Shown: positions 7,206 through 46,035, counted from the stretch's first letter. The stretch is 64,000 bases of DNA from an uncultured delta proteobacterium (GCA_963768985.1 CAVYJZ010000006.1:333702-397701), one strand, 5' to 3'. The notes: generated from the letters alone by a model not told the origin. A program made the numbers and translations.

Positions 7206-7324
7206 CTTGGAGGGGATCGTACGAAGACGGGGCCGTCGGTTGCGAGAAAGCCGCAGCACCTGGACAGGTCTGCAGTTGCAACGGGCGATCGCATCGAGTA
7301 CCCCGTGCGGCCTACGAGCAAGAA

Positions 7325-22527: not shown

Positions 22528-22583
22528 CGCCCGGGCACGAAACCTAGATTTGCGGTAAGGTCAGAGACGGAACCGGTTGGGGG

Positions 22584-25687: not shown

Positions 25688-25740
25688 GTCACACCGCTTA
25701 TATCACGGTGGATTCTGACAGAGCCAAAGAGTGATAGAGT

Positions 25741-26579: not shown

Positions 26580-27479
26580 TTACTCGGGCGCTAGCTCGTG
26601 GAGCGCCTCCTCCGCACGCGCTCGCGTCTCGCGATGCTCCGCAGCACGTTTCAACCAGTCTCGAGCCTTCCGCGAGTTGCCGAGCGTTCGGTAGCATTTG
26701 CCAATCGCGAGCTCTTCTTCGGGCTCGATCGTGGCGGCTTTGCGATCACGGTTGCGGCGTTCGAACGCTGCCACCTGTCTTCTGCAGCCCGCCTCGGCGC
26801 TGTCGGTTCCTGCTTGCTCGTCCGACGCGGACGGCGCGATATCGGCCTCCGCCACGGAGCCTGCCACCTCTTCAGCGGCGAGGCTCGCGGCCGGGGCCCC
26901 GCCCATTCGCTCGAGCTTCGAATCGTCCGCGGCGCGCTTGGCCTTTCGCTCCGAAGACGCGGGGCTCGCGGCCACCATCCTGGTTTTGGCCGACGCCCGG
27001 TCTACGCTCCGCGGCGCCGCCGCCGGTTCGGCTGCCGGCCGCGCTGGCGCAACCTCATGGACCACCACGGGTTGCTCGTGGACCGCTTGCTCCGCCTCGG
27101 CGGAATCGGCCGCCGATTCGGCTTGCTTCGATTCGGGCTGGTCACGGCGTTGGACGCCCCGCGGGATCGCGATGACCCCAACCCCAACGGCCAGAAGGGC
27201 AATCGCCGCCACGGCCCAGGGCAGGGGCTGCCCTCGCAGCTTTCGCACCGGAGCGACCCGGGGCACACGGCTGGATGCCGCTCGCAGGATCGCCGCATCG
27301 ACGGCGGCTCTGGGTTCCTCGATCGGCAGCTGCGCCGCCAAGGCGAGCGCCGCCTTCGTTTGCTCGAATGCGGAGCGACAATCGGGGCAGCGCGCGAGAA
27401 TCCCTCGCACGGCTTCCGGGTCGACCGCTTGGCGCTCGATCAGCTCGAAAATCTGCTCCTTGCACTCTTCACAGTTCAT
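26580..27479 (-). CDS. Anti-sigma factor (zf-HC2 N-terminus, one TM, periplasmic Ala/Glu-rich region with a TPR-like end)
   Basis: MNCEECKEQIFELI...ARCPDCRSAF zinc-finger motif, TM segment PLPWAVAAIALLAVGVGVIAI. It overlaps the stop of the ECF sigma gene. Confidence 0.7.
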   Translation of the reverse strand: MNCEECKEQIFELIERQAVDPEAVRGILARCPDCRSAFEQTKAALALAAQLPIEEPRAAVDAAILRAASSRVPRVAPVRKLRGQPLPWAVAAIALLAVGVGVIAIPRGVQRRDQPESKQAESAADSAEAEQAVHEQPVVVHEVAPARPAAEPAAAPRSVDRASAKTRMVAASPASSERKAKRAADDSKLERMGGAPAASLAAEEVAGSVAEADIAPSASDEQAGTDSAEAGCRRQVAAFERRNRDRKAATIEPEEELAIGKCYRTLGNSRKARDWLKRAAEHRETRARAEEALHELAPE

Positions 27480-28056
27480 TGGACTCTTCCAGGTCGCTCA
27501 AGATCCGCTGCAGATGCTCGAGCGCGTAACGCATCCGACTCTTCACCGTGTTGGCTGGGGCACCGACCACCTCGGCGATCTCCCTGAACGCCAACCCTTG
27601 AAGCTGGCGCAATAGAAAGACCTCCCGTTGCTCCTCGGGCAGGGCGTCCACAGCGCTGGCGATCCGTTGCCGGACAAGCCCGCCGTGGGCGATCGCCTCC
27701 GTGGAAGGACCGGGGTTCTGAAGGCGCTCGCCGAGCGGGTGATCCGAGCCGGCCTGAGCCGCATCCAGGGAAGCGTGTCCGCGGAACTTCATCTTCCGTT
27801 GGTGATCGATACTCAGATTTCGGGCGATCGTATACAGCCATGTGGAGAACTTGGCGTCTCCACGGAACTCGCCGCAGCGCTCGATAACCCTCATCCAAAC
27901 ATCTTGATACAGTTCCTCCGCGCGCCCGCGTTCGCGAGCCGATCGTAAAAGGAACGTGAAGAGCGGCCCGCGGTAGCGTTCCAGCAAGGTTGCAAACGCC
28001 CGGGAGTCCCCCTCGCGATACGCCGCCAACAGCATTTCGTCGGAGGGAACGCTCAT
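27469..28056 (-). CDS. ECF (group 4) RNA polymerase sigma factor
   Basis: The ATG at 28056 gives MSVPSDEMLLAAYREGDSRAFATLLERY. Region 2 (FSTWLYTIARNLSIDHQR) and region 4 (LQGLAFREIAEVVGAPANTVKSRMRYALEHL) are present. Confidence 0.9.
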   Translation of the reverse strand: MSVPSDEMLLAAYREGDSRAFATLLERYRGPLFTFLLRSARERGRAEELYQDVWMRVIERCGEFRGDAKFSTWLYTIARNLSIDHQRKMKFRGHASLDAAQAGSDHPLGERLQNPGPSTEAIAHGGLVRQRIASAVDALPEEQREVFLLRQLQGLAFREIAEVVGAPANTVKSRMRYALEHLQRILSDLEESNEL

Positions 28057-28216
28057 CGCGCGCCCCCCTCTTCCACGTGCCCGTGCTGCGTCGGATGACC
28101 ACACATCGATCGACGTCTGAGACTGGGAGAGGATCTACTCGATCGTACCCATGCAAGTGAAGGACAATTCAGAGGTTCTTGGCGATCGCCGGCGCGGAGA
28201 AACGCCCAGGCCTTCA

Positions 28217-28246
28217 TTGACCCGCCCGCCGGCGCTGCGGTATAAG
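28217..28246 (+). promoter_or_regulatory. Candidate sigma-70-type promoter for the 28307-38246 operon
   Basis: TTGACC (28217-28222), 18-nt spacer, TATAAG (28241-28246), about 60 nt upstream of the ATG at 28307, which is itself preceded by GAGGGGA. Confidence 0.35.
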
Positions 28247-28306
28247 CGCAAGGACTACTTGGGGGCAATTTCGCCTCGGAGGCTGGTCACTTAGAGGGGA
28301 ATTGCG

Positions 28307-29017
28307 ATGCGCAGGATCGTTGCGCTCTCAGTCGTGTCAGCATGCATCTGGGCAGGGGGGGCCTTCGCGATGGGCCATCATGCCGGCGCCGCCCCGCCAG
28401 ACGCACCAGCCGAATCATCGGAGGCGAGCCGCGAAGCGACGCCGGCCGCTGCGAGTAAGCCGATCGATGCCGGCACGTATGCGGTACGCCTCCGCGATCT
28501 CGAACAGCGGATCAACGAGCTCAAAGAGCAGATTTTTCGCTCCAAAGCCAGGCTCTCCTTGCTCGCCGAGACGGTGCTCGAAGGCGTTGTCGGAGGCGGC
28601 CAGGCGGTGATTATCCACGAGAACCGCATGTCCCAGTCGTACAAGCTGGTCAGGGTGGTCTACGCCCTCGATGGCGCCCCGATCTTCACCAAGGCCGACG
28701 AGGAAGGCACGCTCGGCGAACAACCAGAGTTCGAAATCTACAACGGAAGCATCGTTCCAGGGGAGCACACACTCACCGTCAACCTCGAGTATCGAGGGCA
28801 TGGCTACGGCGTTTTCGCGTACCTCAAAGGGTATCGTTTCAAGGTGCGCTCCACGTACACCTTCGCGGTTCCCGAAGGACGCATCGCAACCGTCCACGTC
28901 GTGGGCTACGAGCAAGGCGGTCCGACGACCCCACTCGAGGAACGACCAGCGGTTCGATATATCGAACGGGTCGAGCGGCAGGCTCGCCCCGATGCAAGCG
29001 GTGAGGGCGATCGGTAA
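28307..29017 (+). CDS. Secreted protein of unknown function, first gene of the Glt/Nfs-like operon
   Basis: 236 aa. Signal peptide MRRIVALSVVSACIWAGGAFA, a short coiled coil (LRDLEQRINELKEQIFRSKARL), then a beta-rich domain. Confidence 0.6.
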   Translation: MRRIVALSVVSACIWAGGAFAMGHHAGAAPPDAPAESSEASREATPAAASKPIDAGTYAVRLRDLEQRINELKEQIFRSKARLSLLAETVLEGVVGGGQAVIIHENRMSQSYKLVRVVYALDGAPIFTKADEEGTLGEQPEFEIYNGSIVPGEHTLTVNLEYRGHGYGVFAYLKGYRFKVRSTYTFAVPEGRIATVHVVGYEQGGPTTPLEERPAVRYIERVERQARPDASGEGDR

Positions 29018-31410
29018 TGCAACCTCGTGGGGCGACCGCGTCGCCGCCCACACCGACACTTTGTAGGGGGCGAGCGCAGAGGGTTGGGCATGGGATCATC
29101 CTGGCGCTCTGCCTGGTTACGTCCATTGCGCCGAAGGCTGCAGCACAAGACGCGGCCCCGGCCGATCGCGAGCTGACCGATCTCGAATCGGATACGCAGC
29201 GACTCATGGCCAGAAAGGTTCGGCCGAACGCCCTAAAGAGCGACACCTTCGTCGAGGAGCGCTTGGCCGACGGGGAGCTCTATCTCCGCCTGGAGGATTA
29301 CCTTCGCGCAGCGATTCTTCTCACTGACATCGTCGATCACTACCCGGGGCATCGTGCCTATCCAGAGGCGGTGTTTCTCCTCGGAGAGTCGCTCTTCTTC
29401 GCGGGCGACTACCTCGGCGCTCGCAAGCGCTACGCGGAGGTGATCGACCACGGAACCGACCCGATGTTCCAGCCGTACGTCCAATCGGCGCTCAGCCGTC
29501 TAATCGAGATCGCCATTCGCACCCGCGACTTTCGGAAAGTCGACGCGTATTTCCTGAGCGTGCAAGCGCTTCCGTCTCCCACGCTTTCGGTGACGACCGC
29601 GTACTTCCGTGCGAAGTACTTGTATCATCGGGCCGTCCCGATCGACGACGTGCTCGACACGCCGCCCGACGCTTCGCTTCGGGGCATCGACCAAGGCCGC
29701 CTCGAGCAAGCACGCGAGGGCTTCCTGACGGTCCCAAGCGGCACGGAGTTCGCCCTCCGGGCCAGGTACTTCGTCGGCACCATTTACACGCTGCGCGGGG
29801 AGTACCTCGACGCCATCGCTGCGTTCCATGCCGTCCTCGGCCAGGAGCCGGCGAACGATGAGGAGCGCCAAGTGGTCGACCTGGCTTATCTGGCGCTCGG
29901 ACGTCTGTACTACGAGACCGAGCAGTTCGACCAGGCGGTGGAGGCGTACCGGGCGGTTCAACAGACTTCGCCCCAGTTCGATCAGGCGCTTTACGAGCTC
30001 GCCTGGACGTACATCGGAATGGGCGACGCCATCCAGGCTGAACGCTCACTCGAGCTGCTGTCGGTCGCAGCACCGGATAGCGTGCTCAATGCAGATGGGA
30101 AGATTCTGCGCGGAGACCTCCTGGCACGCACCGGGCGCTACGAGGAAGCCGAGGCAGTATTCGATGAGGTTCGCGCCACCTTCGGGCCGATCCGCGACGA
30201 GCTGGATCGCAGGCGTCGAGAGCACCCGGACCTTCACGCGTATTTCCGGCAGCTTGTGCGCGAAAACTTGGACAGCTTCGACATCGACGATTTCCTTCCG
30301 GAGTCGGCGAGACCGTGGGTTGACCTCGAAGGCGACTACCAGCGGGCGCTGGACCTCCTCGCGGGCCTCAGCGAGGCCAGGCAGCTGGCCAGCGAAACCG
30401 AAGAGCTGGCGCAACGGATCACTGCGGTCCTCAGCGCTCCGAACAGGGTCAGCGTGTTCTCCGACATGCGGCGGCAGCGTGAAAGGACGACGGCGCTCCG
30501 CAACCGGGCGGCTCGGGTGCGTGGTACGCTCATCGACGCGGAGGCGCAGGGCCGGAGCAAGCGCGGCGGCGAACTCGACCGGGTGCGCGCGCGACGCCAG
30601 GAACTTCAAGCCGAAGTGATGACGATGCCCGTCAACACCGAGGACTTCGTCGATCGAGATTTCGAAGAGCTCGAGGAATACCGCAACGCCGAACGCAAGC
30701 TTCAGGCATTGCGAGTCGAGATCCTCGGGCTCGAAGCTCGCATCACCGCATCGAAGACGGGGCTCGCCGCCGTCGATCCGGGGAAGGTCGATCCGAAACT
30801 GGTGCGCGAGCAGCTCCAGGTGCACGAAGCGGAAGTCACACGGTACGAAGAAGATCTCACCTGGATTCGCCGGCGCCTGGAGGTCGGCCGCCTCCATACC
30901 GGCGTGGGTGACGCCAGGTACCAGGCCGACGACGTTCAGCGCAGCAAGTTCATCGGCTTGGTTGGCAGAGAGCGCGCGCTGGCGGGCTCAGGCGGACCTC
31001 GCTACGATTCAGCGTTTGCGCGAGTGACAGCCGTCGAACGCCAACTGGATCAGCGCGATGCAGAGGTGGCCTCGGCGGTGCATCAACGCGTCGCACAGAT
31101 GATGGAAGTGGTCGACGAAGAGACCACAAACCTCGCTCGCTATCGTCGGACGCTTCGGTCCTTCGAGGGGGAAACGGAAGAGGTCATTGGAGCCATCACC
31201 TATCTCAACTTCAATCACGTCCTCGATCGCTTCAACGACCTCATACTGCGAGCGGACGTCGGCAAGATCGACGTCTCGTGGGCAAGGCGTGAGGATCACC
31301 GTCTGCGAATCGACAGCCTGACGCGCGAGCGCGCGCGCGAGCTTCAGTCGCTCGATGACGAATTCCGCGATGTGATGGACCAGGCCCAAACCAGCGGAGG
31401 CGGCGAGTGA
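29017..31410 (+). CDS. Secreted TPR protein with a long C-terminal coiled coil (possible GltC/NfsC analogue)
   Basis: 797 aa. TAATG overlap with the upstream gene. Hydrophobic leader (GIILALCLVTSIAPKAAAQD), TPR-like repeats in the N-terminal half and a Glu/Arg/Leu-rich heptad-like C-terminal half. Confidence 0.65.
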   Translation: MQPRGATASPPTPTLCRGRAQRVGHGIILALCLVTSIAPKAAAQDAAPADRELTDLESDTQRLMARKVRPNALKSDTFVEERLADGELYLRLEDYLRAAILLTDIVDHYPGHRAYPEAVFLLGESLFFAGDYLGARKRYAEVIDHGTDPMFQPYVQSALSRLIEIAIRTRDFRKVDAYFLSVQALPSPTLSVTTAYFRAKYLYHRAVPIDDVLDTPPDASLRGIDQGRLEQAREGFLTVPSGTEFALRARYFVGTIYTLRGEYLDAIAAFHAVLGQEPANDEERQVVDLAYLALGRLYYETEQFDQAVEAYRAVQQTSPQFDQALYELAWTYIGMGDAIQAERSLELLSVAAPDSVLNADGKILRGDLLARTGRYEEAEAVFDEVRATFGPIRDELDRRRREHPDLHAYFRQLVRENLDSFDIDDFLPESARPWVDLEGDYQRALDLLAGLSEARQLASETEELAQRITAVLSAPNRVSVFSDMRRQRERTTALRNRAARVRGTLIDAEAQGRSKRGGELDRVRARRQELQAEVMTMPVNTEDFVDRDFEELEEYRNAERKLQALRVEILGLEARITASKTGLAAVDPGKVDPKLVREQLQVHEAEVTRYEEDLTWIRRRLEVGRLHTGVGDARYQADDVQRSKFIGLVGRERALAGSGGPRYDSAFARVTAVERQLDQRDAEVASAVHQRVAQMMEVVDEETTNLARYRRTLRSFEGETEEVIGAITYLNFNHVLDRFNDLILRADVGKIDVSWARREDHRLRIDSLTRERARELQSLDDEFRDVMDQAQTSGGGE

Positions 31411-34400
31411 ACTTTAGTCGCCCTCACCCCTCCGCAATATTTCTGGCATTCTTGGTCGGGGCGGGGTCGGGACTCCCCGTCCTTGTTTATGCGCAGGTGG
31501 CCCAGGATGCGGCGCCGTGGGCGGGTGCGACCGACGTCACTTTGCCCCCGTTTCTCCAGGACACGGGCAAACGCATCGTCGATGACCGACCGACCCCGAC
31601 GGAGAAACAGCTCGAAGCGCTGCGAGAGCTCGAAGCGGAGGGAAATCGCTTCATCGAGAGCGGAGATGCCTTCCGCTCGACCGTCACGTCGTTGGCGCGG
31701 CGCGAGTATCTCCAGCAGAGGCGTCGGCGCGATCGCTGGTACGGCGAGCAACTCGAGACCGAAGAACGAGCGTTGAACGACGCGAGAGAGGATTCAATTC
31801 GAGTCTTCGAAGAGTTCATTCGCCGCTACCCCGACCATTCGAAGTACACGCCGGACGCGATGTTTCGTTTGGGCGAGCTCTACTTCGAACGAAGCGCCGT
31901 GGAATTCCAACAACGCTACGACGACGCCCAAGCCGCGCGCGCTGCAGGCGATCTCGGCGCCGAAGACAACCTGCCGACATCTCCTGACTTCACGCCGACG
32001 GTCATGCTCTACAGGACATTGGCGGCCCAGTTCCCGAAATACGAGCGCTCCGACGGGGTCTACTATTTGATCGGATACACCCTGAACGAGATGGCGCGTC
32101 CCGAGGAGGCGCTGGCAGCGTGGCTCGCGCTCGTCTGCGCTAACAAGTACGAATACGATCCCAATTGGCGTCCACCGCCCGCGGATGCATCGCTCGCAGC
32201 CCAGGCCAAGTACCCGGCCTTGACGCTGGACGGCCGCCCCCTGGGCGCGTCGGTGGGCGGGGCGTTCGTCAACCCATACAAGGGTTGCGAGCCCATCACG
32301 CCGATGGCGCGCTTCGTCAGTGAGACCTGGTTCCGGATTGGCGAGTACCACTTCGACGACTTCGGCGGGCGAAACGCGCTCGATCTCTCCATTGCGGCGT
32401 ATGGTCGCATTCTCGAAAACCCCGAAGATCGAAACTACAACCTCGCTCTCTACAAGGTCGCCTGGGCATACTACCGTGCAAGCCGATACCCGGAGGCGAT
32501 CCGGCATTTTGCCCGACTGGTGCAGTGGTCCGACGACACGCGGAACGAAACTGGCAAGGCCGGCTCCGAGCTTCGTCCCGAGGCGATCGAGTATCTGGGC
32601 ATCGCATTCGCGTATGATGACTGGAACGAAAACCAGGTGGCCGATCCGAACGAGGGTCAGCCGACCGGTATCGAACGGATCCAGGATCCCGCGTTGCTCC
32701 CGCAGAACGCGCCATGGACACCCGAAGTCTACTTCCAGCTCGGGCAGGTGTACTTCGACGAAGCGAAGTACCCAGACGCGATCGCAGCTTGGCGGCTTGC
32801 GATCACGAAGTGGCCAAACAACCGCCGAACACCGGAAATCCTGAGCGACATCGCAAACGCCTATCAGATGCACAACGAGTTCGAGAACGCGATTCTGGCG
32901 CGCTCCGAGCTCACACAGTATGTGCAGGGAAGCACTTGGTGGAACGCCAACCTGGACCATCCGGCGGAGCAGCGAAACGCCGAACAGCTCGCCGAAAACG
33001 CACTCATCGTCACCGCGCTCCACCACCATCAGCGAGCTCAACGCCTGCGTCAGGAGTGCGTCGAGCAGCGCAACGTGCGGCTTTGTCGGGACTCGCGGGA
33101 GGAGTACGGACTCGCAGCGACGGCATACCGCGGCTATCTGGAACGCTATCCCAACAATCCACAGGGGTATGAGCTCCACTACAATCTGGCCGACGCCTTG
33201 TACTGGTCGAAGAGCTACGAGCAGGCGGCCACCGAGTACGCCGAAGTTCGGGACTCGAACGTCGACGACAGCTATCTGGCCGAGTCCGCCCGGCGCGTGG
33301 TGGAGTCCCTCAAGCGCATCGCCGACCGCGATGTCGAGGAGGGGAGATTAGTCGTACGCACCGAGGCCCCATCTCCGACCGGCACACCCCCATCCGTGCA
33401 ACCAGTCGCAATGCCCGAAACCGTCCAACGGCTCGCACGCGCCCGGGAGATCTACCTCACGCGCGTAAGCCCCAATCGCGACACGGAGGGCGTGCGCGCG
33501 GCGTACGATTACAACAATGCCTTGCTTCTCTACTGGTACGGATATTGGCCCCAGGCGGAACAACGCTTCACGCGCATCTACGAGGATCGTTGCTCGGGGC
33601 CGGAGGCGGACGTGACAGGCCAAATTTCCTGGGAGAACCTCCGTGCGATGGCGATGGCCACGAACGACTCCGAAGAGATTCGACGTCTTGCCAACGATAT
33701 TCAGCAGCGCGGCTGCACGTTCTCCGCGCGTGCCGAAAAGATAGACTGCAGCAAGCCCGCGAACCGCGACAAGCCCATCTGTCGTGCGGGCTCGGATCTC
33801 AACGCGCTCGTCTACCAAGACGCGCTCGACGTCTACAAGCGCGCAGGCCAAGCCTCAGGGGCCGAGCGACAGGCGCTCTACGAGCAATCGGCCACGATGT
33901 TGTTGGCCGCGGTCAACAGCAATCCGAGCGACAGGCAGGCGCCGATCGCCCTCGAGTATGCAGCCCTCGCGTTGGAAGCGACCAACCGATTCGACTCCGC
34001 CGCACAACTCTACCAGCGCATCATCGACGAGGTCGGACCTCGCAAAGCCCAAGACGCGGAAGAGCAGAAGAGCCTCGATGCAATCCTGGCGAATGCTCAC
34101 TTCAAGTTGGCCTACACGGCGAGCCGCAATTTCGACTTCGACCGAGCGGTGGAGAACTACCGCGTACTCGCCGACTCTCCGCGCTTTGCCAAGTCCACCG
34201 ACCCGGACCTCCAAAGCAAGCGCGCCGATGGGCTCGTCAATTCAGCGATTCTCCTCGAACGACTCCAACGCTACCCCGAAGCGACGAAGTACTTCCGTCG
34301 AGTCTACAGCAGCGTCGACGATCCCGAGACCAAGCGAAATGCGCTCTATCGGATCGCTGAAATGGCCTACGAGCAACAGCGTTACCCGCAGGCGATCGTC

Positions 34401-36547: not shown

Positions 36548-36798
36548 AACGTTGGGTTTCGACCGCGTTGCTCGCGCTGGTGCTCGCTGCAGCATCCATG
36601 ACTGCAGCCCGCGCCCAAGATCGAAAAAAGCGTCAGCCGCACATCATCCAACTCGAAGAGATCGTCATCGAGGGCCGGGTGCAAAAGCCGAATGCGTTTT
36701 ACATCCTCAACCGGTCCAACCTGGGCTATGAAGTGCTCGAGCTTCGCACGAGCTTTCTTCGCAAGGTCGTTCGTAGCGTGGAGAAGGAACCGTTCTAA
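36544..36798 (+). CDS. Small secreted protein (84 aa), position-equivalent to GltF/NfsF
   Basis: ATGA overlap upstream and TAATG overlap downstream. Signal peptide MKRWVSTALLALVLAAASMTAARAQD. Confidence 0.5.
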   Translation: MKRWVSTALLALVLAAASMTAARAQDRKKRQPHIIQLEEIVIEGRVQKPNAFYILNRSNLGYEVLELRTSFLRKVVRSVEKEPF

Positions 36799-38246: not shown

Positions 38247-38292
38247 ATCCTTCAGAGACACCGCATTACTGCTTAACTGTATTATGCTTCCA

Positions 38293-38320
38293 TTGACACG
38301 AATATCGTGCGGCGTATAAT
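38293..38320 (+). promoter_or_regulatory. Consensus sigma-70 promoter in an AT-rich intergenic gap
   Basis: TTGACA (38293-38298), 16-nt spacer, TATAAT (38315-38320). It is followed by AGGGGA (38333-38338) and the ATG at 38345. By hand count the 100 nt at 38241-38340 contain only 42 G/C. Confidence 0.5.
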
Positions 38321-38344
38321 CGTCGCAAGTTTAGGGGATCGTTG

Positions 38345-38944
38345 ATGTTTAGAGGGATGGGGACCGTAGGGCAGGCAGTATCCGCCATTTTATTGGTTGG
38401 GAGCGGTTTGGGCTACGCGTTCGCACAAGAGGGGGGCGAGTCGACGGTCGAGGTCGTGAAGGTGACGCCCTTGGGCGCATCGACCGAGCAGCCAGCCCCG
38501 TCGCCGGCGGCGCAGGCCCAGGCTGCGCAAGCCGCAATCGCGAGCGCAACCGCAAACTGTGATGCTCAGTCCCAGGCCCTTCAGAGCGCCAAGCGCGACA
38601 AGGACATCATCTTGGCGACGTGCTTGGACGACAAGCTAAGCCAGTGCAACGCCAACCTTCAGAACATGAAACGCCGAGAGGTCGCGCTGAGGCAGGCTGC
38701 CGCGAGCGGCGACACCGGCCTCAGCAACCACGAGTTCACCGTGATCGGCGTGCTCTCCCAAAAGTTCAAGTCTTTGGCCCAGGCTGCGAACCAGTGCGTG
38801 GGGCAGGATTTGTTCGACACTGGCGAGACCCAGGTGAAGGAGGAGGTCGACATCTTTGCTCCGGACCAGAATCCAGCGGTGATTACCGAGGCGCCGGACT
38901 GGCCGATCCCGTATATTCCCCCACCCGTCAGCGGAGTAAGCTAA
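38345..38944 (+). CDS. Secreted protein of unknown function (4 Cys, Ala/Gln-rich N-terminal part, Pro-rich tail)
   Basis: About 199 aa with leader GQAVSAILLVGSGLGYAFAQE and no recognisable domain. A TTG at 38342 is an alternative start. Confidence 0.55.
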   Translation: MFRGMGTVGQAVSAILLVGSGLGYAFAQEGGESTVEVVKVTPLGASTEQPAPSPAAQAQAAQAAIASATANCDAQSQALQSAKRDKDIILATCLDDKLSQCNANLQNMKRREVALRQAAASGDTGLSNHEFTVIGVLSQKFKSLAQAANQCVGQDLFDTGETQVKEEVDIFAPDQNPAVITEAPDWPIPYIPPPVSGVS

Positions 38945-38986
38945 CGAGCGGAATGGTCTTGGCATGCGGGGGGGAAACAAGGGATC

Positions 38987-40318
38987 ATGCGCTTCTGCTC
39001 GAAGTTAGAGCTTGCTCTGGCTTTGGGAGCCATCGTTAGCGCCGCATTGTTGCCCACGACCGCGGGCGCGCAGGGCGGATTTCTCGAGGACCGCGCGCCC
39101 AGAGAGGGCCCAGGCTTCAAAGTCGGGCGACTGGTCTTGCACCCGGGGCTCTCACTGCAAAGCGGCTACAATTCGAACATCTTCCTGCAGAGCAGTAATG
39201 AAGAAGGTGCGTTCATCTTGCGTCTCGAAGGGTATCTCGACGTCGCCACCGCGGGAGCGGTTCGGAGCGCCCAGGGCGAGGCGAACGCGGTCGAACCGAA
39301 AAAAATCGAGTTTCGCGGCGGGGTCGGAGGGCGGTATTACCACTACTTCAGCGCGAGGGTCGGGGACAACGTCGGTGCGGATGCGAACGTTGATTTCTCG
39401 TACAACCCTTCGAAGGTATTCAGCTTGCAGGTGCGGGATGAATTCCGCCGCACCATTCAACCCTTCTCCAATCCGAACACCACGTCGGGAACTACGATCA
39501 GCTACGGCCGCAACATCAACACCGCGTCACTGGCCCTCGTAGGGCGGAGCAAAAGCCAAGTGCTCGAGGGCAGCGTCGGTTACACCAACTACGTGCAGTT
39601 CTTCGACGCGAATGTCTACGCCTACGCCAAAACCATGTCGCATCACGTTCCGGTTTCGTTGAGTTGGCGATTCTTCCCTACCTCGGCCCTCGTCTACACC
39701 GCCGAATACATCAACCAGACATACCTCAATCCGGAGCAAGTCCTCGCCTCGCCTACGTCGCTGTCGAACAACAACAGGGTCTTGACTTTGATTGGTTACA
39801 ACGGTGCGATCACGGAGCGGACGATGCTCACTGCGATGATCGGATACACTGCGGGATTCTACGAAGCCGCCCAAAACTTCGACGACGTGATCGCCCGCGC
39901 GAACCTGAGTTGGCGGCCGCGAGCCACGATCGTGTTCACCACGGCCTTCGATCGCAATGTACGTCCCTCCTACATTGGAAACTACACCACGATAAACCGC
40001 CTTCGCGCCAGCGCGCGATTTACCATCGCCGGTGCGCTCGACCTTGGCGTGAGCGCGTGGGTGTCGTTCGACAAGTCAGGCCTGGCCCTGAGCCCAGATG
40101 GCGCACCACTGGGCAACCAGCTCAATCGCAAAGACACCCGCTTGCAGGCCGCCCTTTTTGGGGAGTACCGGTTCAAGGCCTGGCTCGCGCTCTTCGGCCA
40201 GATCGGCTACCTAGCGGACTACACGGGTTTTCGATACCTGGGAACCGGTCCGTTGATCGTCCCGTACGCGAACTATCAGAGGTTTGGAGCATGGCTTGGT
40301 CTTCGCGTCTTCTACTGA
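38987..40318 (+). CDS. Outer-membrane beta-barrel protein (Wzp-like porin partner of a short OPX; GltH/NfsH-like is the alternative)
   Basis: 443 aa. Signal peptide (LALALGAIVSAALLPTTAGAQG), alternating-hydrophobicity strands rich in Y/G/N/S/T, and a C-terminal beta-signal ending GLRVFY. Confidence 0.65.
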   Translation: MRFCSKLELALALGAIVSAALLPTTAGAQGGFLEDRAPREGPGFKVGRLVLHPGLSLQSGYNSNIFLQSSNEEGAFILRLEGYLDVATAGAVRSAQGEANAVEPKKIEFRGGVGGRYYHYFSARVGDNVGADANVDFSYNPSKVFSLQVRDEFRRTIQPFSNPNTTSGTTISYGRNINTASLALVGRSKSQVLEGSVGYTNYVQFFDANVYAYAKTMSHHVPVSLSWRFFPTSALVYTAEYINQTYLNPEQVLASPTSLSNNNRVLTLIGYNGAITERTMLTAMIGYTAGFYEAAQNFDDVIARANLSWRPRATIVFTTAFDRNVRPSYIGNYTTINRLRASARFTIAGALDLGVSAWVSFDKSGLALSPDGAPLGNQLNRKDTRLQAALFGEYRFKAWLALFGQIGYLADYTGFRYLGTGPLIVPYANYQRFGAWLGLRVFY

Positions 40319-40899
40319 TCACCGCGCTGCTACACTTGACGCTGGCCTCATCCGCATGCAGCAAGCGTGGACTGCAAGCCACGGAAGTGCCGCCGCCCGC
40401 GACCGACGACACCACGCTCGGCCCGGCTGATGTCATCACGGTCCGCGTCTACGGCGAGGAAGCGATGACAGGGAGCCACCAGGTGGGTCCGGACGGCACG
40501 ATCAGTTTTCCACTGCTCGGTGCCGTTCAAGTGAACGGCCTCGAGCCCACGGATGTCGCGGAGAAGATACAAACCGAGCTCCGAGAGCGAGACCTCCTCC
40601 GTAATCCGCAAGTGTCGGTGTACGTAGAGTCATACGCTTCGAAGCGCGTCAGTGTAGTGGGCGCAGTTGCGAATCCCGGGACGTTCCCGCTCCAGCCTGG
40701 GATGACGGTGGTGCAAGCGATCAGCATGGCCGGGGGGTTTTCATCACTGGCCGACCGAGACGGGACCGTCGTCACCCGCCGCAGAGGCAAAGAGATCGTC
40801 CGTTATAGGGTTCCGGTGGCACGCGTCACCAAGGGCCAAGCCGAAGATATCGAAGTCGCCGCAGGGGACATCATCTTCGTCCCCGAGCGCCTGTTCTAG
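40291..40899 (+). CDS. Polysaccharide export (OPX, Wza-family) lipoprotein, short form without an OM-spanning C-terminal helix
   Basis: 202 aa. Lipobox LASSAC. Poly_export/SLBB pattern (LGPADVITVRVYGEE...GPDGTISFPLLGAVQVNGLEPTDVAEKI...VSVVGAVANPGTFPL...TVVQAISMAGG). The start lies 28 nt inside the barrel gene. Confidence 0.8.
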   Translation: MAWSSRLLLITALLHLTLASSACSKRGLQATEVPPPATDDTTLGPADVITVRVYGEEAMTGSHQVGPDGTISFPLLGAVQVNGLEPTDVAEKIQTELRERDLLRNPQVSVYVESYASKRVSVVGAVANPGTFPLQPGMTVVQAISMAGGFSSLADRDGTVVTRRRGKEIVRYRVPVARVTKGQAEDIEVAAGDIIFVPERLF

Positions 40900-40908
40900 G
40901 AGCTCGGC

Positions 40909-42189
40909 TCAGAGGCCCCAGTAGAGCAAGTCGCTTCTCTTCCGGGCATCCTCGCCCACCAGCGACTTCACGTCGATGAATAGGCCGCCCGCGCGAACGC
41001 TGCTGATGATGCGGCCCAGCTGGGCGATGTACTGCTGATGCGGGACCGCGAGGATGACACCGTCGAGGTCGCTGAGCGCGTCCCATGGTCGAAGCTCGAT
41101 TCCATACTCGCGGAGGGCTTCCTCGCCGGACGCCAGCGGATCGTGAACCATCGGCTCAATTCCGAACTCCCGGAGCTCGCTGATGATGTCCGGCACTCGG
41201 CTGTTCCTGAGATCGGGCACGTTCTCTTTGAACGTCAAGCCAAGCACACCAATACGAGCGCCCTTGATGGCGTGATCCTGTTTGCGGAGCAGCTTGATGG
41301 TTCGCTGCGCCACGTAGTGACCCATCCCATCGTTGATGCGGCGACCCGCGAGAATGACCTCCGGATGGTATCCGAGCGCTTCCGCTTTGGCCGTCAGGTA
41401 GTACGGGTCGACCCCGATACAGTGGCCTCCGACCAGACCCGGGGTGAACGGCAAGAAATTCCACTTCGTTGCCGCCGCGTCGAGCACGTCGCGCGTTCGA
41501 ATACCCATGCGATCGAAGATCAAAGCGAGCTCGTTCATCAGCGCAATGTTCAAATCGCGCTGGGTGTTCTCGATGACCTTGGCCGCCTCGGCGACTTTGA
41601 TCGAAGAAGCGCGATAAACGCCCGCGGCGACCACGCTTTCGTACACTCGAGCTACGCGCTCCAACGCCTCGGCATCTTCGCCCGAAACCACCTTGATGAT
41701 TTTCTCGAAGGTGTGGAGCTTGTCGCCTGGGTTGATGCGCTCCGGCGAATAGCCCAGCTTGAAGTCTCGCGATTGGCGCAGCCCCGAGGTTTCGGCCAAC
41801 AGCGGCCCACATTGCTCCTCGGTTACGCCGGGATAGACGGTCGATTCGTATACCACCACGGCCCCCGGAGCGAGCGCAGTGCCGACGATCCGGGTGGCAG
41901 AGAGCAGTGGGGCGAGATCGGGACGCCTGTCGGCGTCGATGGGGGTTGGGACGGCGATCACGAAGAACGTGCAACCTCGGAGATCGGCGGGGTCACTGCT
42001 GAGCCTGAGCTTGCTCTCGCGGAGCTCGGTGTCGGTCACTTCGCCGGTCCAATCGTGGTTGGCCGCGAGCGAATTCACGCGAGCCGCGGAGAGGTCGAAA
42101 CCGACCGTATCCTCGAACTTTCGCGCAAAGGCCAGCGCAACTGGAAGGCCCACGTACCCGAGCCCTACGATTGCGATGCGCTCGCTCAT
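40909..42189 (-). CDS. Nucleotide-sugar 6-dehydrogenase (TviB/WbpO-like UDP-N-acetylhexosamine dehydrogenase)
   Basis: The ATG at 42189 gives MSERIAIVGLGYVGLPVALAF (Rossmann fold). YSPERINPGD and GGHCIGVDPYYL motifs. The long Arg-rich upstream extension was rejected. Confidence 0.88.
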   Translation of the reverse strand: MSERIAIVGLGYVGLPVALAFARKFEDTVGFDLSAARVNSLAANHDWTGEVTDTELRESKLRLSSDPADLRGCTFFVIAVPTPIDADRRPDLAPLLSATRIVGTALAPGAVVVYESTVYPGVTEEQCGPLLAETSGLRQSRDFKLGYSPERINPGDKLHTFEKIIKVVSGEDAEALERVARVYESVVAAGVYRASSIKVAEAAKVIENTQRDLNIALMNELALIFDRMGIRTRDVLDAAATKWNFLPFTPGLVGGHCIGVDPYYLTAKAEALGYHPEVILAGRRINDGMGHYVAQRTIKLLRKQDHAIKGARIGVLGLTFKENVPDLRNSRVPDIISELREFGIEPMVHDPLASGEEALREYGIELRPWDALSDLDGVILAVPHQQYIAQLGRIISSVRAGGLFIDVKSLVGEDARKRSDLLYWGL

Positions 42190-43130
42190 GACCCCTGCGC
42201 CTCGTTGCGAAACCACTCGGCCGTTGCCGTCAAACCGCGTTCGAACGGAGTCGGTGGCCCGAGAATGGAAACCATCACGGAGGGATCGAGAACGGAGCGC
42301 TCGAGGTCTCCGGGACGGTAGGCACCATCGCCGACGATCGCTGGTCTGCCCACGATGCTCACCATCCGCTCGGCGAGCGCTCTCGTCGAGATGCCAACGC
42401 CAGTGGAGATGTTGATGGTGCGGCCGTCGAGCGCGCCCTCGCATGCCGCGAGGTTCGCCCGGACGCAATCCCGCACGTAGACGTAGTCGCGAACACAGCC
42501 ATCATCACCTTCCTCGGCGCGGGCGTTGACTTGAATCGGCTGGCCCTGAAGGAGTCGCTGGAAGAAGATCGCGATGACACCAGCCTCGCCGTGCGGATCC
42601 TGCCGTGGCCCGTAGACGTTGCCATATCGGAGGATCGTGTAGCGGAGCCCAGACGCGTGGCCATAGGCCCGCAGATACAGCTCGAAGCTCGCCTTGCTGC
42701 ACGCGTAGGGGCTCAGCGGGAGCGCGGGCCAGTCTTCGCTCGCAGCTCGCCCCTCCGGCACCTCCCCATAGAGCGCCCCGCCAGTGCTCGAAAAGATCAA
42801 ACGACTTCCGCACTCTAGGGCTGCGGTGGCCACGTTCAGTGAGCCCAAGACGTTGATCTCCGCATCCAAGAGGGGCTCCCGCACGCTGGCGGTGACGCTG
42901 GCTTGCGCTGCGTGGTGGCTGATTGCATCTGGCTTGAAGTGCAGCACCAGCTCCTGCAAGGCTTCCCGGTTTCGGATATCGACCGGATGAAACTCGGCGC
43001 TCGGCGGAACGTTCTCCGCCCGGCCGTGGCTGAGGTCGTCGACGACCAGGACCTCGTGGCCCGCCTCGAGAGCGGCATCAGCCACGTGGCTCCCGATGAA
43101 ACCAGCTCCTCCGGTCACCAAGATCTTCAC
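42186..43130 (-). CDS. NAD-dependent sugar epimerase (GalE/WbpP-like SDR)
   Basis: MKILVTGGAGFIGSH glycine motif and YxxxK (YACSKAS). ATGA overlap with the downstream dehydrogenase gene. Confidence 0.88.
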   Translation of the reverse strand: MKILVTGGAGFIGSHVADAALEAGHEVLVVDDLSHGRAENVPPSAEFHPVDIRNREALQELVLHFKPDAISHHAAQASVTASVREPLLDAEINVLGSLNVATAALECGSRLIFSSTGGALYGEVPEGRAASEDWPALPLSPYACSKASFELYLRAYGHASGLRYTILRYGNVYGPRQDPHGEAGVIAIFFQRLLQGQPIQVNARAEEGDDGCVRDYVYVRDCVRANLAACEGALDGRTINISTGVGISTRALAERMVSIVGRPAIVGDGAYRPGDLERSVLDPSVMVSILGPPTPFERGLTATAEWFRNEAQGS

Positions 43131-45058
43131 ACCCCCTCCATTGTCTTCTGCGCTCGAAATGCTTCCCCGGCCCGCACGGGGGGCTCACTGTCCGCGCTGT
43201 CCTCGCCGTACTCCGGCACGAGTTGCACGAGAGCACTCCGAATCGCAGCGGGGTTGCCAGTCTTGCAAAGCGCGCCGAGCGTGTCGAATTGAGCACGAAG
43301 CGCGGGGAGGTGGGGTGAATCGTAGGTCCCGGTGAAGATCTTCGGGTGCGCCGTCCGCTCGATCCCTTCGCTGACCGTCGAGAGCTCCTCGAACAATTTC
43401 TCGCCCGGCCGAATGCCCGTGAACCTGATCTCGATGTCTTTGTCGGGCTCGAATCCACTCAGCCGGATCAGGTCGTGGGCGAGATCGATGATGCGAACGG
43501 GCTGCCCCATGTCCAAGATGAAAGTTTCACCACCTCGACTGAGAGCCGCAGCTTGCATCACCAACTGGACGGCCTCTGGAATCGTCATGAAGTATCGGGT
43601 CATGTCGGGATGGGTCACCGTGATCGGTCCGCCTCCTTCAATCTGGCGGCGGAAGATTGGAATGACGCTACCCGCAGAACCCAGCACGTTCCCAAATCGC
43701 ACCGTCGCAAAGTGCGTGGCGCTTTGGAGCGAGAGGCCCTGGATGTAGAGCTCGGCTGCGCGTTTCGCCGCCCCCATGACCGACGTTGGGTTCACCGCCT
43801 TGTCGGTCGAGATCATCACGAACCGTTCGACTGCGAGACTGTCCGCTAGGTCGGCCACGATCTGAGTCCCGAGGATGTTGTTCTTCACGGCTTCGACCGG
43901 ATTCCATTCCATCATCGGCACGTGTTTGTGAGCCGCCGCGTGAAAAACGACCATCGGTCGATGTTCGCGAAACACCTGCGTCACACGCGGCACGTCGGTG
44001 ATATCGGCCATGCAGGGGATGATCTCGAGATCGGAAAAGCGATTGCTGAGCTCGGAGTGAATCTCGAAGAGGTTGTTCTCCGCGCGCTCGACCAGAACGA
44101 GGCGGGAAGGGCGATAGACCGCAACTTGGCGGCAGAGCTCCGAGCCGATACTCCCGCCCGCACCGGTAACGAGGACTGGCTGACCGCGCACGACACCGGC
44201 GACCTCTTCGGTGTTCAGCTTCACTTGCTCCCGCCGCAGAAGGTCCTCGATGGCGACATCCCGAATGCGCGAGAGGTTCACGCGCCCGCCGACGATTTCA
44301 TAGGTCCCCGGAACGATCTTCACGCTCAGGCCGGCTTGTTTGCAGCTCTCGGTGAGGCGACGAATCGCCGAACCCGGGGCGTTCGAGATCGTAATCAGCG
44401 CTTGCTTCGCCTCGTGCCGCTGAGCCAAGCGAAGCAGATCTTTGGTGGTGCCCTGCACCTTGATGCCGTGAATTACCGCACCTTGTTTCACTGGGTCGTC
44501 ATCGACGAAGGCCACCGGCACAATCCCGAGGTCGGGGCGGCGCGCGATTTCCTGTGCGATGAGGACGCCCCCTTGACCCGCACCCACGAGCAGCGTCGGC
44601 GCACGATGCTCTTCTCCTTGGTGCTGCTTGGATGCCACGCGTTCGCCGAGCATCCGCCGAAGCGCTCTGACCCCGGTCAGCCCAATGAACGCCAGTACGA
44701 AATCGCCGAGCAGCACCCCGAGCGGAACGATGCCATATCGCGCCAGAGGAAACTGGTTGGTCAAGTGCGGGCTCAGGAACCGCACAACGACGAGCAGCGC
44801 CGTAGCCGACGCGATCGCCCCGAAGATTCGGACGGTGTCGCGAAGGCTGATGTAACGCCAAGAGAAGCGGGGGATTCCAAAAGCCGAGAGGAACGCGTAC
44901 TGCGACAGCACGACGTACGGCAGCACGATCATGAGCTGTCGAAACATCACCCTGGGGACGTTCCAGTCGAAGCGAAGCAGCATCGCCAAGAAGAACGCGA
45001 GCATGAGAACGCCGATGTCGATCACGAATTGGGAACTGCGCCTCGTGAACCGGCTCAT
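43127..45058 (-). CDS. Membrane-anchored UDP-N-acetylglucosamine 4,6-dehydratase (CapD/WbpM/PglF family)
   Basis: The ATG at 45058 gives four N-terminal TM segments followed by two Rossmann-like regions (LLVGAGQGG; VLVTGAGGSIGSEL) and a CapD-type core (GNVLGSAGSVIPIF). Confidence 0.88.
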   Translation of the reverse strand: MSRFTRRSSQFVIDIGVLMLAFFLAMLLRFDWNVPRVMFRQLMIVLPYVVLSQYAFLSAFGIPRFSWRYISLRDTVRIFGAIASATALLVVVRFLSPHLTNQFPLARYGIVPLGVLLGDFVLAFIGLTGVRALRRMLGERVASKQHQGEEHRAPTLLVGAGQGGVLIAQEIARRPDLGIVPVAFVDDDPVKQGAVIHGIKVQGTTKDLLRLAQRHEAKQALITISNAPGSAIRRLTESCKQAGLSVKIVPGTYEIVGGRVNLSRIRDVAIEDLLRREQVKLNTEEVAGVVRGQPVLVTGAGGSIGSELCRQVAVYRPSRLVLVERAENNLFEIHSELSNRFSDLEIIPCMADITDVPRVTQVFREHRPMVVFHAAAHKHVPMMEWNPVEAVKNNILGTQIVADLADSLAVERFVMISTDKAVNPTSVMGAAKRAAELYIQGLSLQSATHFATVRFGNVLGSAGSVIPIFRRQIEGGGPITVTHPDMTRYFMTIPEAVQLVMQAAALSRGGETFILDMGQPVRIIDLAHDLIRLSGFEPDKDIEIRFTGIRPGEKLFEELSTVSEGIERTAHPKIFTGTYDSPHLPALRAQFDTLGALCKTGNPAAIRSALVQLVPEYGEDSADSEPPVRAGEAFRAQKTMEGV

Positions 45059-46035
45059 GATCCGCGAACCCCTTGGACCGACTCCTGATACCAGAGCCAG
45101 AATTCCCGCACGCCCTCTTCGACGGTGACCTTGGGGTCGTATCCGAGCAGCTCTTTGGCGCGATCGACGTTGGCATACGTGTATTCGATGTCGGCAGCCG
45201 GCATAGGCCTGTCGATCAAGCTCGAAGGCCTCCCCGCGTGCTTCTCGATCAGTCGAACGAAATCGGCGAGGAGCGTCGGTTGGCCGCGACCGAGATTGAT
45301 GATCTCGTAACCGAGCGGCCGATCTGCCGCGGCGATCACGCCTCGAACGATATCGTCGACGTACGTCCAATCCCGGTACATCTGACCGTTGTTGTACAAA
45401 GGCACTTCCACGCCGTGAAAAATATTGTCCAACACTCGATACGCCATCATGTCGGGGCGACCTCGCGGACCGTACACGGTGAAGAACCGGAGCGCTGTAA
45501 AACTCTGCCCGAAGAGGTGAAAGTACGAATGGCCGAGCAGCTCGGCTGCTCGCTTGCTGGCCGGGTACGGAGCCAGGGGCCGGTCGGCCGGATCGCTTTC
45601 GATGAATGGAACGATCTTCGTCCGCCCATATACCGACGAGGTCGAAGCAAAGATGAACGTGGGCCGCCCGTGCCGCTGCGCCGCCTGGAGCAGGTTGAGG
45701 GTTCCTCCGAGATTCACGTCCATGTAGAGCTTGGGGTCTTCGATGGAGGCGCGGACACCTGCCATCGCGGCAAGGTGGATGATCGCGTCGAACCGGTGCT
45801 CGGCAAAGAGTGCATCGAGCGCCGCCTGGTCACGGATGTCGCTTCGATGGAACACGAACTTCCGCGGGTCCGGTGCCAAGTCCCGAACCGTCTCTAAGTT
45901 CGCCAGCTTACGGGCCGGGTCGTAATAGTCGTTGAGGTTGTCGACCCCGACCACCAGATCACCGCGGCGCAACAATGCAGATGCCGTATTGCTCCCAATG
46001 AACCCAGCAGCACCGGTCAACAGGATCGTCTTCAT
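45055..46035 (-). CDS. NAD-dependent epimerase (UDP-glucuronate/UDP-GalNAcA 4-epimerase-like SDR)
   Basis: MKTILLTGAAGFIGSN and YPASKRAAE (YxxxK). First gene of the four-gene ATGA-coupled operon. Confidence 0.85.
   Translation of the reverse strand: MKTILLTGAAGFIGSNTASALLRRGDLVVGVDNLNDYYDPARKLANLETVRDLAPDPRKFVFHRSDIRDQAALDALFAEHRFDAIIHLAAMAGVRASIEDPKLYMDVNLGGTLNLLQAAQRHGRPTFIFASTSSVYGRTKIVPFIESDPADRPLAPYPASKRAAELLGHSYFHLFGQSFTALRFFTVYGPRGRPDMMAYRVLDNIFHGVEVPLYNNGQMYRDWTYVDDIVRGVIAAADRPLGYEIINLGRGQPTLLADFVRLIEKHAGRPSSLIDRPMPAADIEYTYANVDRAKELLGYDPKVTVEEGVREFWLWYQESVQGVRGS

Follow-up and report, generated by a model that had tools for sequence, protein, structure and literature searches.

Organization of the locus

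The DNA described here is a 64,000-nucleotide stretch (hereafter the window) from an uncultured delta proteobacterium (GCA_963768985.1, CAVYJZ010000006.1:333702-397701), and our subject is the gene cluster at positions 26580-46035, in which an operon resembling the glt and nfs genes of Myxococcus xanthus is followed on the same strand by genes for a putative polysaccharide export apparatus. The window is ~63% G+C, and its closest protein relatives are found in uncultured Polyangiales and Sandaracinus-like Myxococcota. From a listing of open reading frames (ORFs), the G+C content at each codon position, and Pfam and NCBIfam scans, four blocks can be mapped: a glt-like operon (28307-38246, + strand); a three-gene export triad (38342-40899, +), from which it is separated by a gap of 96 bp; an extracytoplasmic function (ECF) sigma/anti-sigma pair transcribed divergently from the glt-like operon; and a four-gene UDP-amino-sugar operon (40909-46035, -) convergent with the triad. 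A preliminary description of this DNA had reported the glt-like genes, a pair encoding a beta-barrel and an OPX (outer-membrane polysaccharide export) protein, the amino-sugar operon and the ECF pair, and all of these were recovered at the same coordinates by the ORF, Pfam and NCBIfam analyses.

The glt-like operon

In M. xanthus, two Glt-like clusters of unknown function have been described in addition to glt (G1/G2) and nfs (G3); these are G5 and G4, the latter including the gltD homolog MXAN_1922 (Luciano 2011). The supplement to that study lists G4 proteins of 447 aa (MXAN_1919), 91 aa (MXAN_1920), 490 aa (MXAN_1921), 1111 aa (MXAN_1922) and 809 aa (MXAN_1923). The window operon contains six genes whose start and stop codons overlap throughout from 28307 to 38246, such that they are translationally coupled. 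The glt-like genes listed in the preliminary description are real, but the operon is larger than was supposed, since a small ORF at 36544-36798 coding for an 84-aa GltF/CglF-like protein had been missed.

The second gene (29017-31410, +) encodes a GltC-like secreted protein of 797 aa with tetratricopeptide repeat (TPR) Pfam matches, a size comparable to those of MXAN_1923 (809 aa) and Hoch_6494 (823 aa). Its top NCBIfam match is the GltC model NF033756, at 76 bits against an equivalog cut-off of 450 bits, and it shares 49-51% identity with Polyangia-type relatives and 24-32% with the C-terminus of the product of the gene that precedes the G4 GltD homolog in Myxococcaceae. The GltD-like product of the third gene (31407-35243, +) is a large secreted TPR protein of 1278 aa for which an exact-sequence look-up returned no database record and which matched no GltD model in the NCBIfam scan. 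It contains YbgF/CpoB-like TPRs (TIGR02795, 111 bits) in addition to its TPR Pfam matches. Homologs are found in Polyangiales and Sandaracinus, and tblastn aligned the protein with the G4 GltD homolog of Myxococcus, Corallococcus and other Myxococcaceae (28-29% identity over ~1050 aa, E 1e-83 to 1e-93). Downstream of it lies a gene for a GltE-like TPR lipoprotein of 435 aa (35240-36547, +) with a probable lipobox (...ATYGC), for which the top NCBIfam match is the GltE model NF033758 (120.2 bits; cut-off 225) and which is 31-33% identical to the Myxococcaceae G4 GltE homologs.

The 84-aa secreted protein (36544-36798, +) matches the CglF model NF033764 (26.7 bits, E 4e-6; cut-off 90), CglF being the same protein as GltF, and has 45-57% identity to a 91-aa, MXAN_1920-like G4 protein of Myxococcaceae. 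The last gene of the operon (36798-38246, +) codes for a GltG-like TonB-type protein of 482 aa with a cytoplasmic N-terminal domain, a transmembrane segment at about residues 178-196, a linker rich in Ala, Gly and Glu, and an AgmX/PglI (TonB_C-like; PF03544) C-terminal domain. The tail-domain model NF033768 (95 bits; cut-off 40) and TIGR01352 (33.6 bits; cut-off 27.1) are both matched above their cut-offs, while the GltG model NF033760 scores 154 bits against a cut-off of 650 and is matched only at model positions 190-647. No FHA domain was found in this protein in the Pfam and NCBIfam scans; FHA domains are carried by GltG and NfsG, of 640 and 682 aa respectively, and by the 749-aa protein of G5 (Luciano 2011). 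Because their scores fall below the G1 equivalog cut-offs, the C-, E-, F- and G-like proteins are classed by sequence as Glt/Nfs paralogs rather than Glt proteins proper.

The first gene (28307-29017, +) encodes a 236-aa secreted protein with a signal peptide, a long helix and a beta-rich C-terminal part. It is the most conserved member of the operon, with 75-83% identity in five related loci introduced below (L001-L003, L084 and L085), where the other genes are 32-64% identical, and it has 3045 homologs. The protein has no Pfam or NCBIfam match, a sequence search of the PDB with the family identified no relative, and an AlphaFold2 model built from a shallow alignment of 30 sequences was unusable (pLDDT 45.8). 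Some of its homologs carry the NCBI label 'dihydrolipoamide acetyltransferase', apparently wrongly.

No counterpart of the outer-membrane module of the gliding and spore-coat machines (the OmpA-like barrels GltA/B or NfsA/B, GltH/NfsH, and GltK) was found in the window. The sole barrel is that of the export triad; neither the 236-aa protein nor the 200-aa protein of the triad has a barrel signature.

The export triad

The triad consists of genes for a 200-aa secreted protein (38342-38944, +), a 443-aa outer-membrane beta-barrel (38987-40318, +) and a 202-aa OPX lipoprotein (40291-40899, +). The OPX protein contains a Poly_export domain, a single SLBB domain and a lipobox (...LASSAC), and is 40% identical to WzaB, the class-3 OPX protein of M. 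xanthus. Its best match among solved structures is PDB 9N9A (M. xanthus sWzaB; E 2e-34), which is this same WzaB. Since the end-to-end alignment with 9N9A reaches the last residue, the protein is of the short class-3 (D1D2) type, which has no C-terminal helix spanning the outer membrane.

The barrel protein has a signal peptide and ends in ...RVFY. Only weak matches to BBP2_2 and EpsL were obtained, and a PDB sequence search gave no match. Profile-profile comparison by hhalign, using a query profile built from the barrel and its three closest counterparts, aligned it with the Myxococcaceae WzpB orthologs at 99.9% probability (E 2.4e-33, 340 columns), and an 18-strand topology is expected for it. 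Its gene immediately precedes that for the OPX protein, which is also the arrangement of wzpB and wzaB. By these comparisons the barrel and OPX proteins are assigned to the composite OPX/beta-barrel translocons of the kind described by Schwabe 2022 and Saidi 2022.

The 200-aa protein belongs to no Pfam or NCBIfam family and has no PDB match. Its homologs in the related loci L001-L003 and L084-L086 are 40-53% identical, and a homolog is encoded upstream of wzpB in 43/46 Myxococcaceae loci (29-35% identity, E 1e-10 to 1e-13), with a PPPxSP-like motif at the C-terminus common to the Polyangia-type and Myxococcaceae proteins. In L001 the gene is placed between those for the barrel and the OPX protein rather than before the barrel. 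We suggest that this MXAN_1917-like protein may be a third and so far undescribed component of the WzpB/WzaB translocon. It accompanies the barrel/OPX pair in nearly all loci (38342-38944 in the window, 7893-8504 in the Myxococcus locus L007), including L037, where G4 genes are lacking.

Conservation in Polyangia-type relatives

Six Polyangia-type relatives of the locus were compared. Four of them (L001, from a 9.07-Mb genome; L003, a Sandaracinus-like marine contig; L002 and L085) have the genes C, D, E, F, G, 200-aa protein, barrel and OPX in this order on one strand, with 56-64% identity among the GltD-like proteins of these complete loci. In L084 the locus reaches the contig edge after the barrel gene, and the sixth, L086, from an assembly with only 4x coverage, has the barrel gene but none for an OPX protein. 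The flanks vary among these loci. Of the three loci that cover the ECF position, L001 and L003 have the pair and L002 does not. Downstream of the OPX gene there are, in L001, GT4 glycosyltransferase, WecA-like and Wzy_C genes; in L002, genes for a methyltransferase, NAGPA and DegT; in L085, genes for a Wzc-like polysaccharide co-polymerase (PCP)/BYK kinase and Wzy_C; and in L003, the dehydrogenase, epimerase and WbpM genes of the window, but co-directional. L086 carries genes for a PglC-like priming enzyme and a GT4 glycosyltransferase in a convergent sugar operon beside the barrel gene.

The conserved core is thus the glt-like operon together with the export triad, and the sugar genes and ECF pair are lineage-variable neighbors. 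The preliminary description had proposed a single integrated module of all four blocks; the part of this that stands is the association of the glt-like operon with the triad, whereas the sugar operon and the ECF pair vary between lineages. The sugar operon in particular is a variable neighbor: in L003 its genes run co-directionally, in L086 the operon is convergent but longer, in L001, L002 and L085 it is replaced by other polysaccharide genes, and beside wzaB in Myxococcaceae it is absent.

Correspondence to the M. xanthus G4 cluster

In M. xanthus the biosurfactant polysaccharide (BPS) is exported by WzaB (MXAN_1915) and WzpB (MXAN_1916) (Islam 2020, Saidi 2022, Schwabe 2022), and by their locus tags they are close to G4. 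An OPX alignment with WzaB as its first sequence, when scanned against species-representative genomes, recovered 80 loci in Myxococcaceae and Archangiaceae, with which the window proteins were compared by tblastn; counts were made over the 46 of these that extend 9 kb or more upstream of wzaB. The GltD-, GltE- and GltF-like genes are present in 44-45/46 of these, and the GltG-like gene in 43/46, on the same strand and in the order seen in the window. Co-localization of the glt-like operon with the barrel/OPX pair, for which the preliminary description had suggested a search across Myxococcota, is therefore found both here and in L001, L002, L003 and L085, and because this adjacency is conserved across two classes of Myxococcota it is more than chance. 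The loss of adjacency in relatives that the preliminary description had named as a ground for refutation is therefore not observed.

The arrangement is illustrated by L007, from Myxococcus sp. Y35, in which WzaB is 97% identical to that of M. xanthus. Contiguous ORFs of 1112, 489, 91 and 447 aa are followed by a cyclic nucleotide monophosphate (cNMP)-binding-domain gene and then by ORFs of 203, 421 and 204 aa, sizes that fit those published for MXAN_1922 to MXAN_1915 (e.g. 1112 vs. 1111 aa and 489 vs. 490 aa). The cNMP-binding gene (L007 7404-7853), which lies between the G-like and 203-aa genes and by gene count is MXAN_1918, has no counterpart in the window or in the Polyangia-type loci. We conclude, with little reservation, that the linkage is conserved and that the region is the Polyangiales counterpart of M. 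xanthus G4 (MXAN_1919-1923) plus MXAN_1917, wzpB and wzaB.

Gene order and strand are the same in M. xanthus and in the window, and the proteins in the order C, D, E, F, G, ~200-aa protein, barrel and OPX have lengths of 809, 1111, 490, 91, 447, 203, 421 and 204 aa in M. xanthus and 797, 1278, 435, 84, 482, 200, 443 and 202 aa in the window, although sequence identity is only 22-57%. The two also resemble one another in how far they depart from the G1 models, the Myxococcus G4 and window proteins scoring 119.9 and 120.2 bits, respectively, to GltE, 32 and 27 to CglF, 159 and 154 to GltG, and 107 and 95 to the tail domain NF033768; the 447-aa Myxococcus G-like protein is matched by the GltG model from position 224 and, like that of the window, has no FHA domain. 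They differ in that Myxococcus has the additional cNMP-binding gene, and the window has the ECF pair and amino-sugar operon alongside.

The preliminary description had treated the joining of Glt-like and export genes as an unknown arrangement and compared it to the separate nfs and exo loci. Because it is present in M. xanthus, with G4 (MXAN_1919-1923) near WzpB/WzaB and the contiguous order displayed in L007, the arrangement is old and conserved rather than new, and the apt comparison is with G4 and the BPS translocon. No connection between G4 and WzaB/WzpB is mentioned in the open literature that we searched (BPS and OPX papers, a 2025 review, and a September 2026 preprint), nor did we find a paper on MXAN_1917-1921, MXAN_1923 or the corresponding MXAN_RS tags. 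Islam 2020 described mxan_1915 as 'orphan-like' and noted that wzaB is contiguous with BPS genes in Sandaracinus amylolyticus, which agrees with the polysaccharide genes downstream of OPX in L001 and L085.

Three of the scanned loci have unexpected taxonomic labels. L009 (BNCN01000011.1), filed as Comamonas sp. KCTC 72670, has a complete G4 cluster of the Myxococcus type and a WzaB with 96% identity to the M. xanthus protein, and the assembly is probably mislabeled or contaminated; L008 and L044, filed as 'Proteobacteria bacterium', are likewise Myxococcaceae-like.

Relationship to other envelope machines

The Agl-Nfs machine, a Glt paralog that moves the polymer exported by ExoA (WzaS) after its secretion, is functionally tied to the polymer of a class-3 OPX/beta-barrel pair (WzaS/WzpS) and, as in the window, combines a G protein of the TonB-like kind with C, D and E proteins that contain TPRs. 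It differs in that the nfs and exo loci are separate, and in having NfsA, NfsB, NfsH and an FHA-bearing NfsG (682 aa), none of which is present in the window; the export sites and Nfs do not co-localize. The Agl-Glt gliding machine (G1/G2/M1) shares homologous C, D, E, F and G components and a Tol/Ton-like architecture; GltA, B, H, I, J, K, CglB and AglRQS are not in the window, and the matches to Glt models lie below the equivalog cut-offs. A cluster in Haliangium ochraceum (Hoch_6494-6498) listed in the supplement of Luciano 2011 has C-D-E-F-G genes for proteins of 823, 1202, 422, 120 and 490 aa, including a short G-like protein; the likeness covers the C-G genes. More distantly, the Tol-Pal and TonB-ExbBD systems share an inner-membrane protein with a TonB_C-type C-terminal domain and the YbgF/CpoB-like TPRs of the D-like protein, and dependence on a TolQR/ExbBD-type motor is presumed for the window machine. 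The window differs from them in having no TolB/Pal or TonB-dependent receptor, unlinked motor genes, and far larger TPR proteins.

The amino-sugar operon and the probable polymer

The four genes of the convergent operon are translationally coupled. Gene 1 (45055-46035, -) encodes a 326-aa short-chain dehydrogenase/reductase (SDR) predicted to be a nucleotide-sugar epimerase/dehydratase (PF01370, E 9e-60, and GDP_Man_Dehyd), with 69% identity to its L086 counterpart. It is followed by a gene for a WbpM/PglF-type membrane UDP-GlcNAc 4,6-dehydratase (longest ORF 43127-45370, -; PF02719 Polysacc_synt_2, E 2e-117, and CoA_binding_3), which matches the PseB and FnlA models below their cut-offs. This ORF overruns its upstream neighbor, and the true start is probably near 45055, giving a protein of ~640 aa; the homologs in L086 and L003 are 625 and 654 aa. 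The third gene (42186-43130, -) codes for a 314-aa SDR epimerase/dehydratase (PF01370 Epimerase, E 2e-58) that matches the GalE and RmlB models below cut-off and is 60% identical to that of L086. The last gene product is a UDP-GlcNAc 6-dehydrogenase of the TviB/WbpO type (40909-42189, -) with three UDPG_MGDP_dh domains and 64-71% identity to its counterparts in L003 and L086. It scores 455 bits to the TviB model NF011729, vs. 179-203 bits for UDP-ManNAc dehydrogenase models. Its longest ORF (40909-42468) also overruns the upstream neighbor, and a start at 42189 (MSERIAIVG...) is probable, with an ATGA stop/start overlap. No 2-epimerase gene was found in the window in the family scans.

Taken at the level of sequence, these enzymes indicate precursors of the UDP-GlcNAcA or GalNAcA type and of the 6-deoxy-HexNAc type, and the polymer is probably an acidic N-acetyl-amino-sugar polymer. 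It probably differs from the ManNAcA-rich BPS, because the dehydrogenase is TviB-like and not of the UDP-ManNAc type expected for that polymer; the reading of the locus as a BPS pathway proper was rejected on the ground of this different dehydrogenase type. In L086 (8938-16722) the convergent sugar operon of the window is extended by DegT/PglE-, PglD- and Bac_transf (PglC)-like genes, which are flanked on one side by the last SDR gene and on the other by the WbpM-like gene; none of the three is present in the window.

The ECF pair and promoters

The ECF sigma factor (27469-28104, -; 211 aa) contains Sigma70_r2, Sigma70_r4_2 and Sigma70_ECF domains, matches NF009166 at 225.5 bits (cut-off 206), and has 51-53% identity to the ECF sigma factors encoded at the corresponding site of the L001 and L003 loci. 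The gene overlapping it codes for a 299-aa anti-sigma factor (26580-27479, -) with a CxxC...CxxC N-terminal domain, one transmembrane segment at residues 88-106 and a periplasmic C-terminal part; it weakly matches NF052375 (E 4e-8) and is 30% identical over 84 aa to its L001 counterpart. L002 has no ECF counterpart at the same position.

A sigma-70 consensus promoter, TTGACA-16-TATAAT, is located in the gap before the triad (38293-38320, +) and matches at 12/12 positions, which is rare for a genome of 63% G+C. Looser TTGACA...TATACT-like elements occupy the same place in L001 and L002, and no copy of the exact consensus occurs in the L001-L003 loci. Reading of the intergenic region by eye also identified a sigma-70-like TTGACC-18-TATAAG upstream of the glt-like operon. 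A search for sigma-54 promoters gave matches at chance level and no site upstream of the glt-like operon in the window. Sigma-54 enhancer-binding response regulators are encoded near the cluster in the window (22548-23933, +, and 24290-25702, -) and in L001 (2993-4393), L002 (4883-6394) and L003 (907-2313); in L002, which lacks the ECF pair at this site, one of them immediately precedes the operon. Control by the ECF pair, as the preliminary description had it, is unsupported beyond adjacency: the pair is missing in L002, and sigma-70-like promoters precede both the operon and the triad.

Other genes in the window

Family scans with Pfam and NCBIfam identified no MotA/ExbB or ExbD/TolR domain, PCP, Wzx, Wzy, glycosyltransferase or priming enzyme in the window ORFs that were scanned, in accord with the preliminary description, which had reported the export-pathway genes and the motor as missing from the window. 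At 6219-10271 there is a polysaccharide deacetylase gene (6219-7343, -) followed by genes for an ATP-binding cassette (ABC) ATPase (7085-8038), an ABC-2 permease (8038-8600) and an ABC_transp_aux protein (8604-10271). The latter three (7085-10271) form a GldA/F/G-like trio, and no connection to the glt-like locus was seen.

Proposed function of the conserved core

The conserved linkage suggests that G4-type transducers work with the WzpB/WzaB translocon. By sequence, the glt-like operon encodes a Tol/Ton-like envelope transducer composed of an inner-membrane TonB-type GltG paralog, secreted TPR proteins of the GltC, GltD and GltE types, a small GltF and the 236-aa protein, and the triad encodes a composite outer-membrane translocon of a WzpB-type barrel, a D1D2 OPX lipoprotein and the 200-aa partner. 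A TonB-like G protein and its TPR proteins would need a partner in the outer membrane. As G4-type clusters have no GltA/B/H/K, and the barrel and OPX are the only outer-membrane proteins of the conserved block, the transducer would most likely dock onto the WzpB/WzaB-type translocon and couple it to a TolQR/AglRQS-type proton motor encoded elsewhere. Such coupling could aid the translocon in passing, gating or releasing an acidic amino-sugar polymer that a Wzx/Wzy pathway with genes beyond the window would produce. Genes of the Wzx/Wzy pathway directly after OPX in L001 and L085 count toward a role in polysaccharide export, and the action of Agl-Nfs on the polymer exported by ExoA (WzaS) is a precedent for a link between a Glt paralog and a polymer. 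A G4-type transducer working with a WzpB/WzaB-type translocon, as the Polyangiales counterpart of the M. xanthus pair, is in our judgment the best overall explanation, with a probability of about 0.55; functional coupling of some kind between the two blocks is slightly more probable than this, and the specific docking and energizing mechanism is a tentative proposal with somewhat less than an even chance of being correct.

Several observations weigh against this explanation. A neighbor-joining tree of 108 GltD-like proteins, with no labeled G1, G3 or G5 members, is star-like and uninformative for assignment to G1, G3, G4 or G5, and does not make the G4 proteins of Myxococcaceae a sister group of the window clade, and because of this the orthology rests on the eight-gene synteny and domain architecture. 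The perfect sigma-70 promoter before the triad means that the triad can be expressed on its own. L037 (Hyalangium versicolor) retains the triad with no G4 genes upstream, and no other Myxococcaceae-type locus that extends 10 kb upstream of wzaB has the 200-aa gene and OPX in the absence of G4-like genes; conversely, L086 has G4-like genes and the barrel and lacks OPX. A polar insertion in MXAN_1922 caused no visible gliding or twitching defect (Luciano 2011), whereas wzaB mutants are impaired in spreading dependent on type IV pili (Islam 2020), and since the insertion lacks the defect seen in spreading of the wzaB mutants, G4 is not obviously essential for BPS export. The motor, PCP, Wzx/Wzy and priming enzyme are not in the window, and contacts between transducer and translocon proteins are inferred.

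Alternatively, the two blocks could be independent, adjacent by inheritance or by shared regulation, with G4 serving, for example, in Tol-Pal-like envelope maintenance. The strong promoter of the triad, the separate occurrence of the triad in L037 and of G4-like genes in L086, the lack of a motility phenotype of the MXAN_1922 insertion, and the unrelated cNMP-binding gene between the blocks in Myxococcus all favor independence. We nonetheless regard it as unlikely, in that order and strand are kept in 44-45/46 Myxococcaceae and the four complete Polyangia-type loci despite differing flanks, a retention across two classes that is unusual for unrelated genes, and no other candidate outer-membrane partner is encoded near G4. 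About equally doubtful is the Nfs-like reading of the preliminary description, in which the Glt-like complex would have no part in export and would instead shift or compact the already secreted polymer on the surface of the cell or spore, as Agl-Nfs handles the Exo/MASC spore-coat polymer. The window does encode homologs of NfsC-G/GltC-G in conserved linkage with an OPX pair, and Agl-Nfs provides the example of a paralog that handles an OPX-exported polymer away from the export sites; the G4-type cluster, however, has no homologs of the A, B, H and K proteins used at the surface by Glt and Nfs, and its G-like protein has no FHA domain. Furthermore, the BPS exported by WzaB/WzpB is released into the medium and is not cell-associated (Islam 2020), so that winding of polymer over the surface has no obvious role in M. 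xanthus.

That the locus encodes an Agl-Glt gliding machine proper, with the polysaccharide as slime, is highly improbable. The top NCBIfam matches are indeed GltC, GltE, CglF and GltG, but the scores are far under the cut-offs (76 vs. 450, 120 vs. 225, 27 vs. 90 and 154 vs. 650 bits), GltA/B/H/I/J/K, CglB and AglRQS are not among the scanned window ORFs, and the M. xanthus counterpart MXAN_1922 is dispensable for gliding (Luciano 2011). This candidate was rejected for its sub-cut-off scores and the missing outer-membrane module and motor.

Implications

For the window itself, the outcome is mainly a corrected annotation of an ordinary and conserved myxobacterial locus. For G4, described in 2011 with no function assigned, the linkage provides a hypothesis that can be tested genetically in M. 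xanthus, namely that its products act together with the BPS-type translocon. Soil Myxococcaceae and marine-type Polyangiales alike have retained the G4-type operon and the WzpB/WzaB-type translocon together in one gene order.

The linkage also bears on the published idea of a polysaccharide-handling ancestor of the gliding and spore-coat machines, Agrebi et al. reportedly having argued in 2015 in Nat Rev Microbiol that these derive from an ancestor in capsule assembly. One speculative and, in our estimation, rather improbable extension is that G4-type transducers are Ton/Tol-like energizers driven by the proton-motive force, which open class-3 OPX/beta-barrel translocons, pull on the polymer or release it from them, and that the G4-WzpB/WzaB linkage is a surviving form of the proposed capsule-assembly ancestor. 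If this is so, these systems would couple energy to the export of polysaccharide through the outer membrane.

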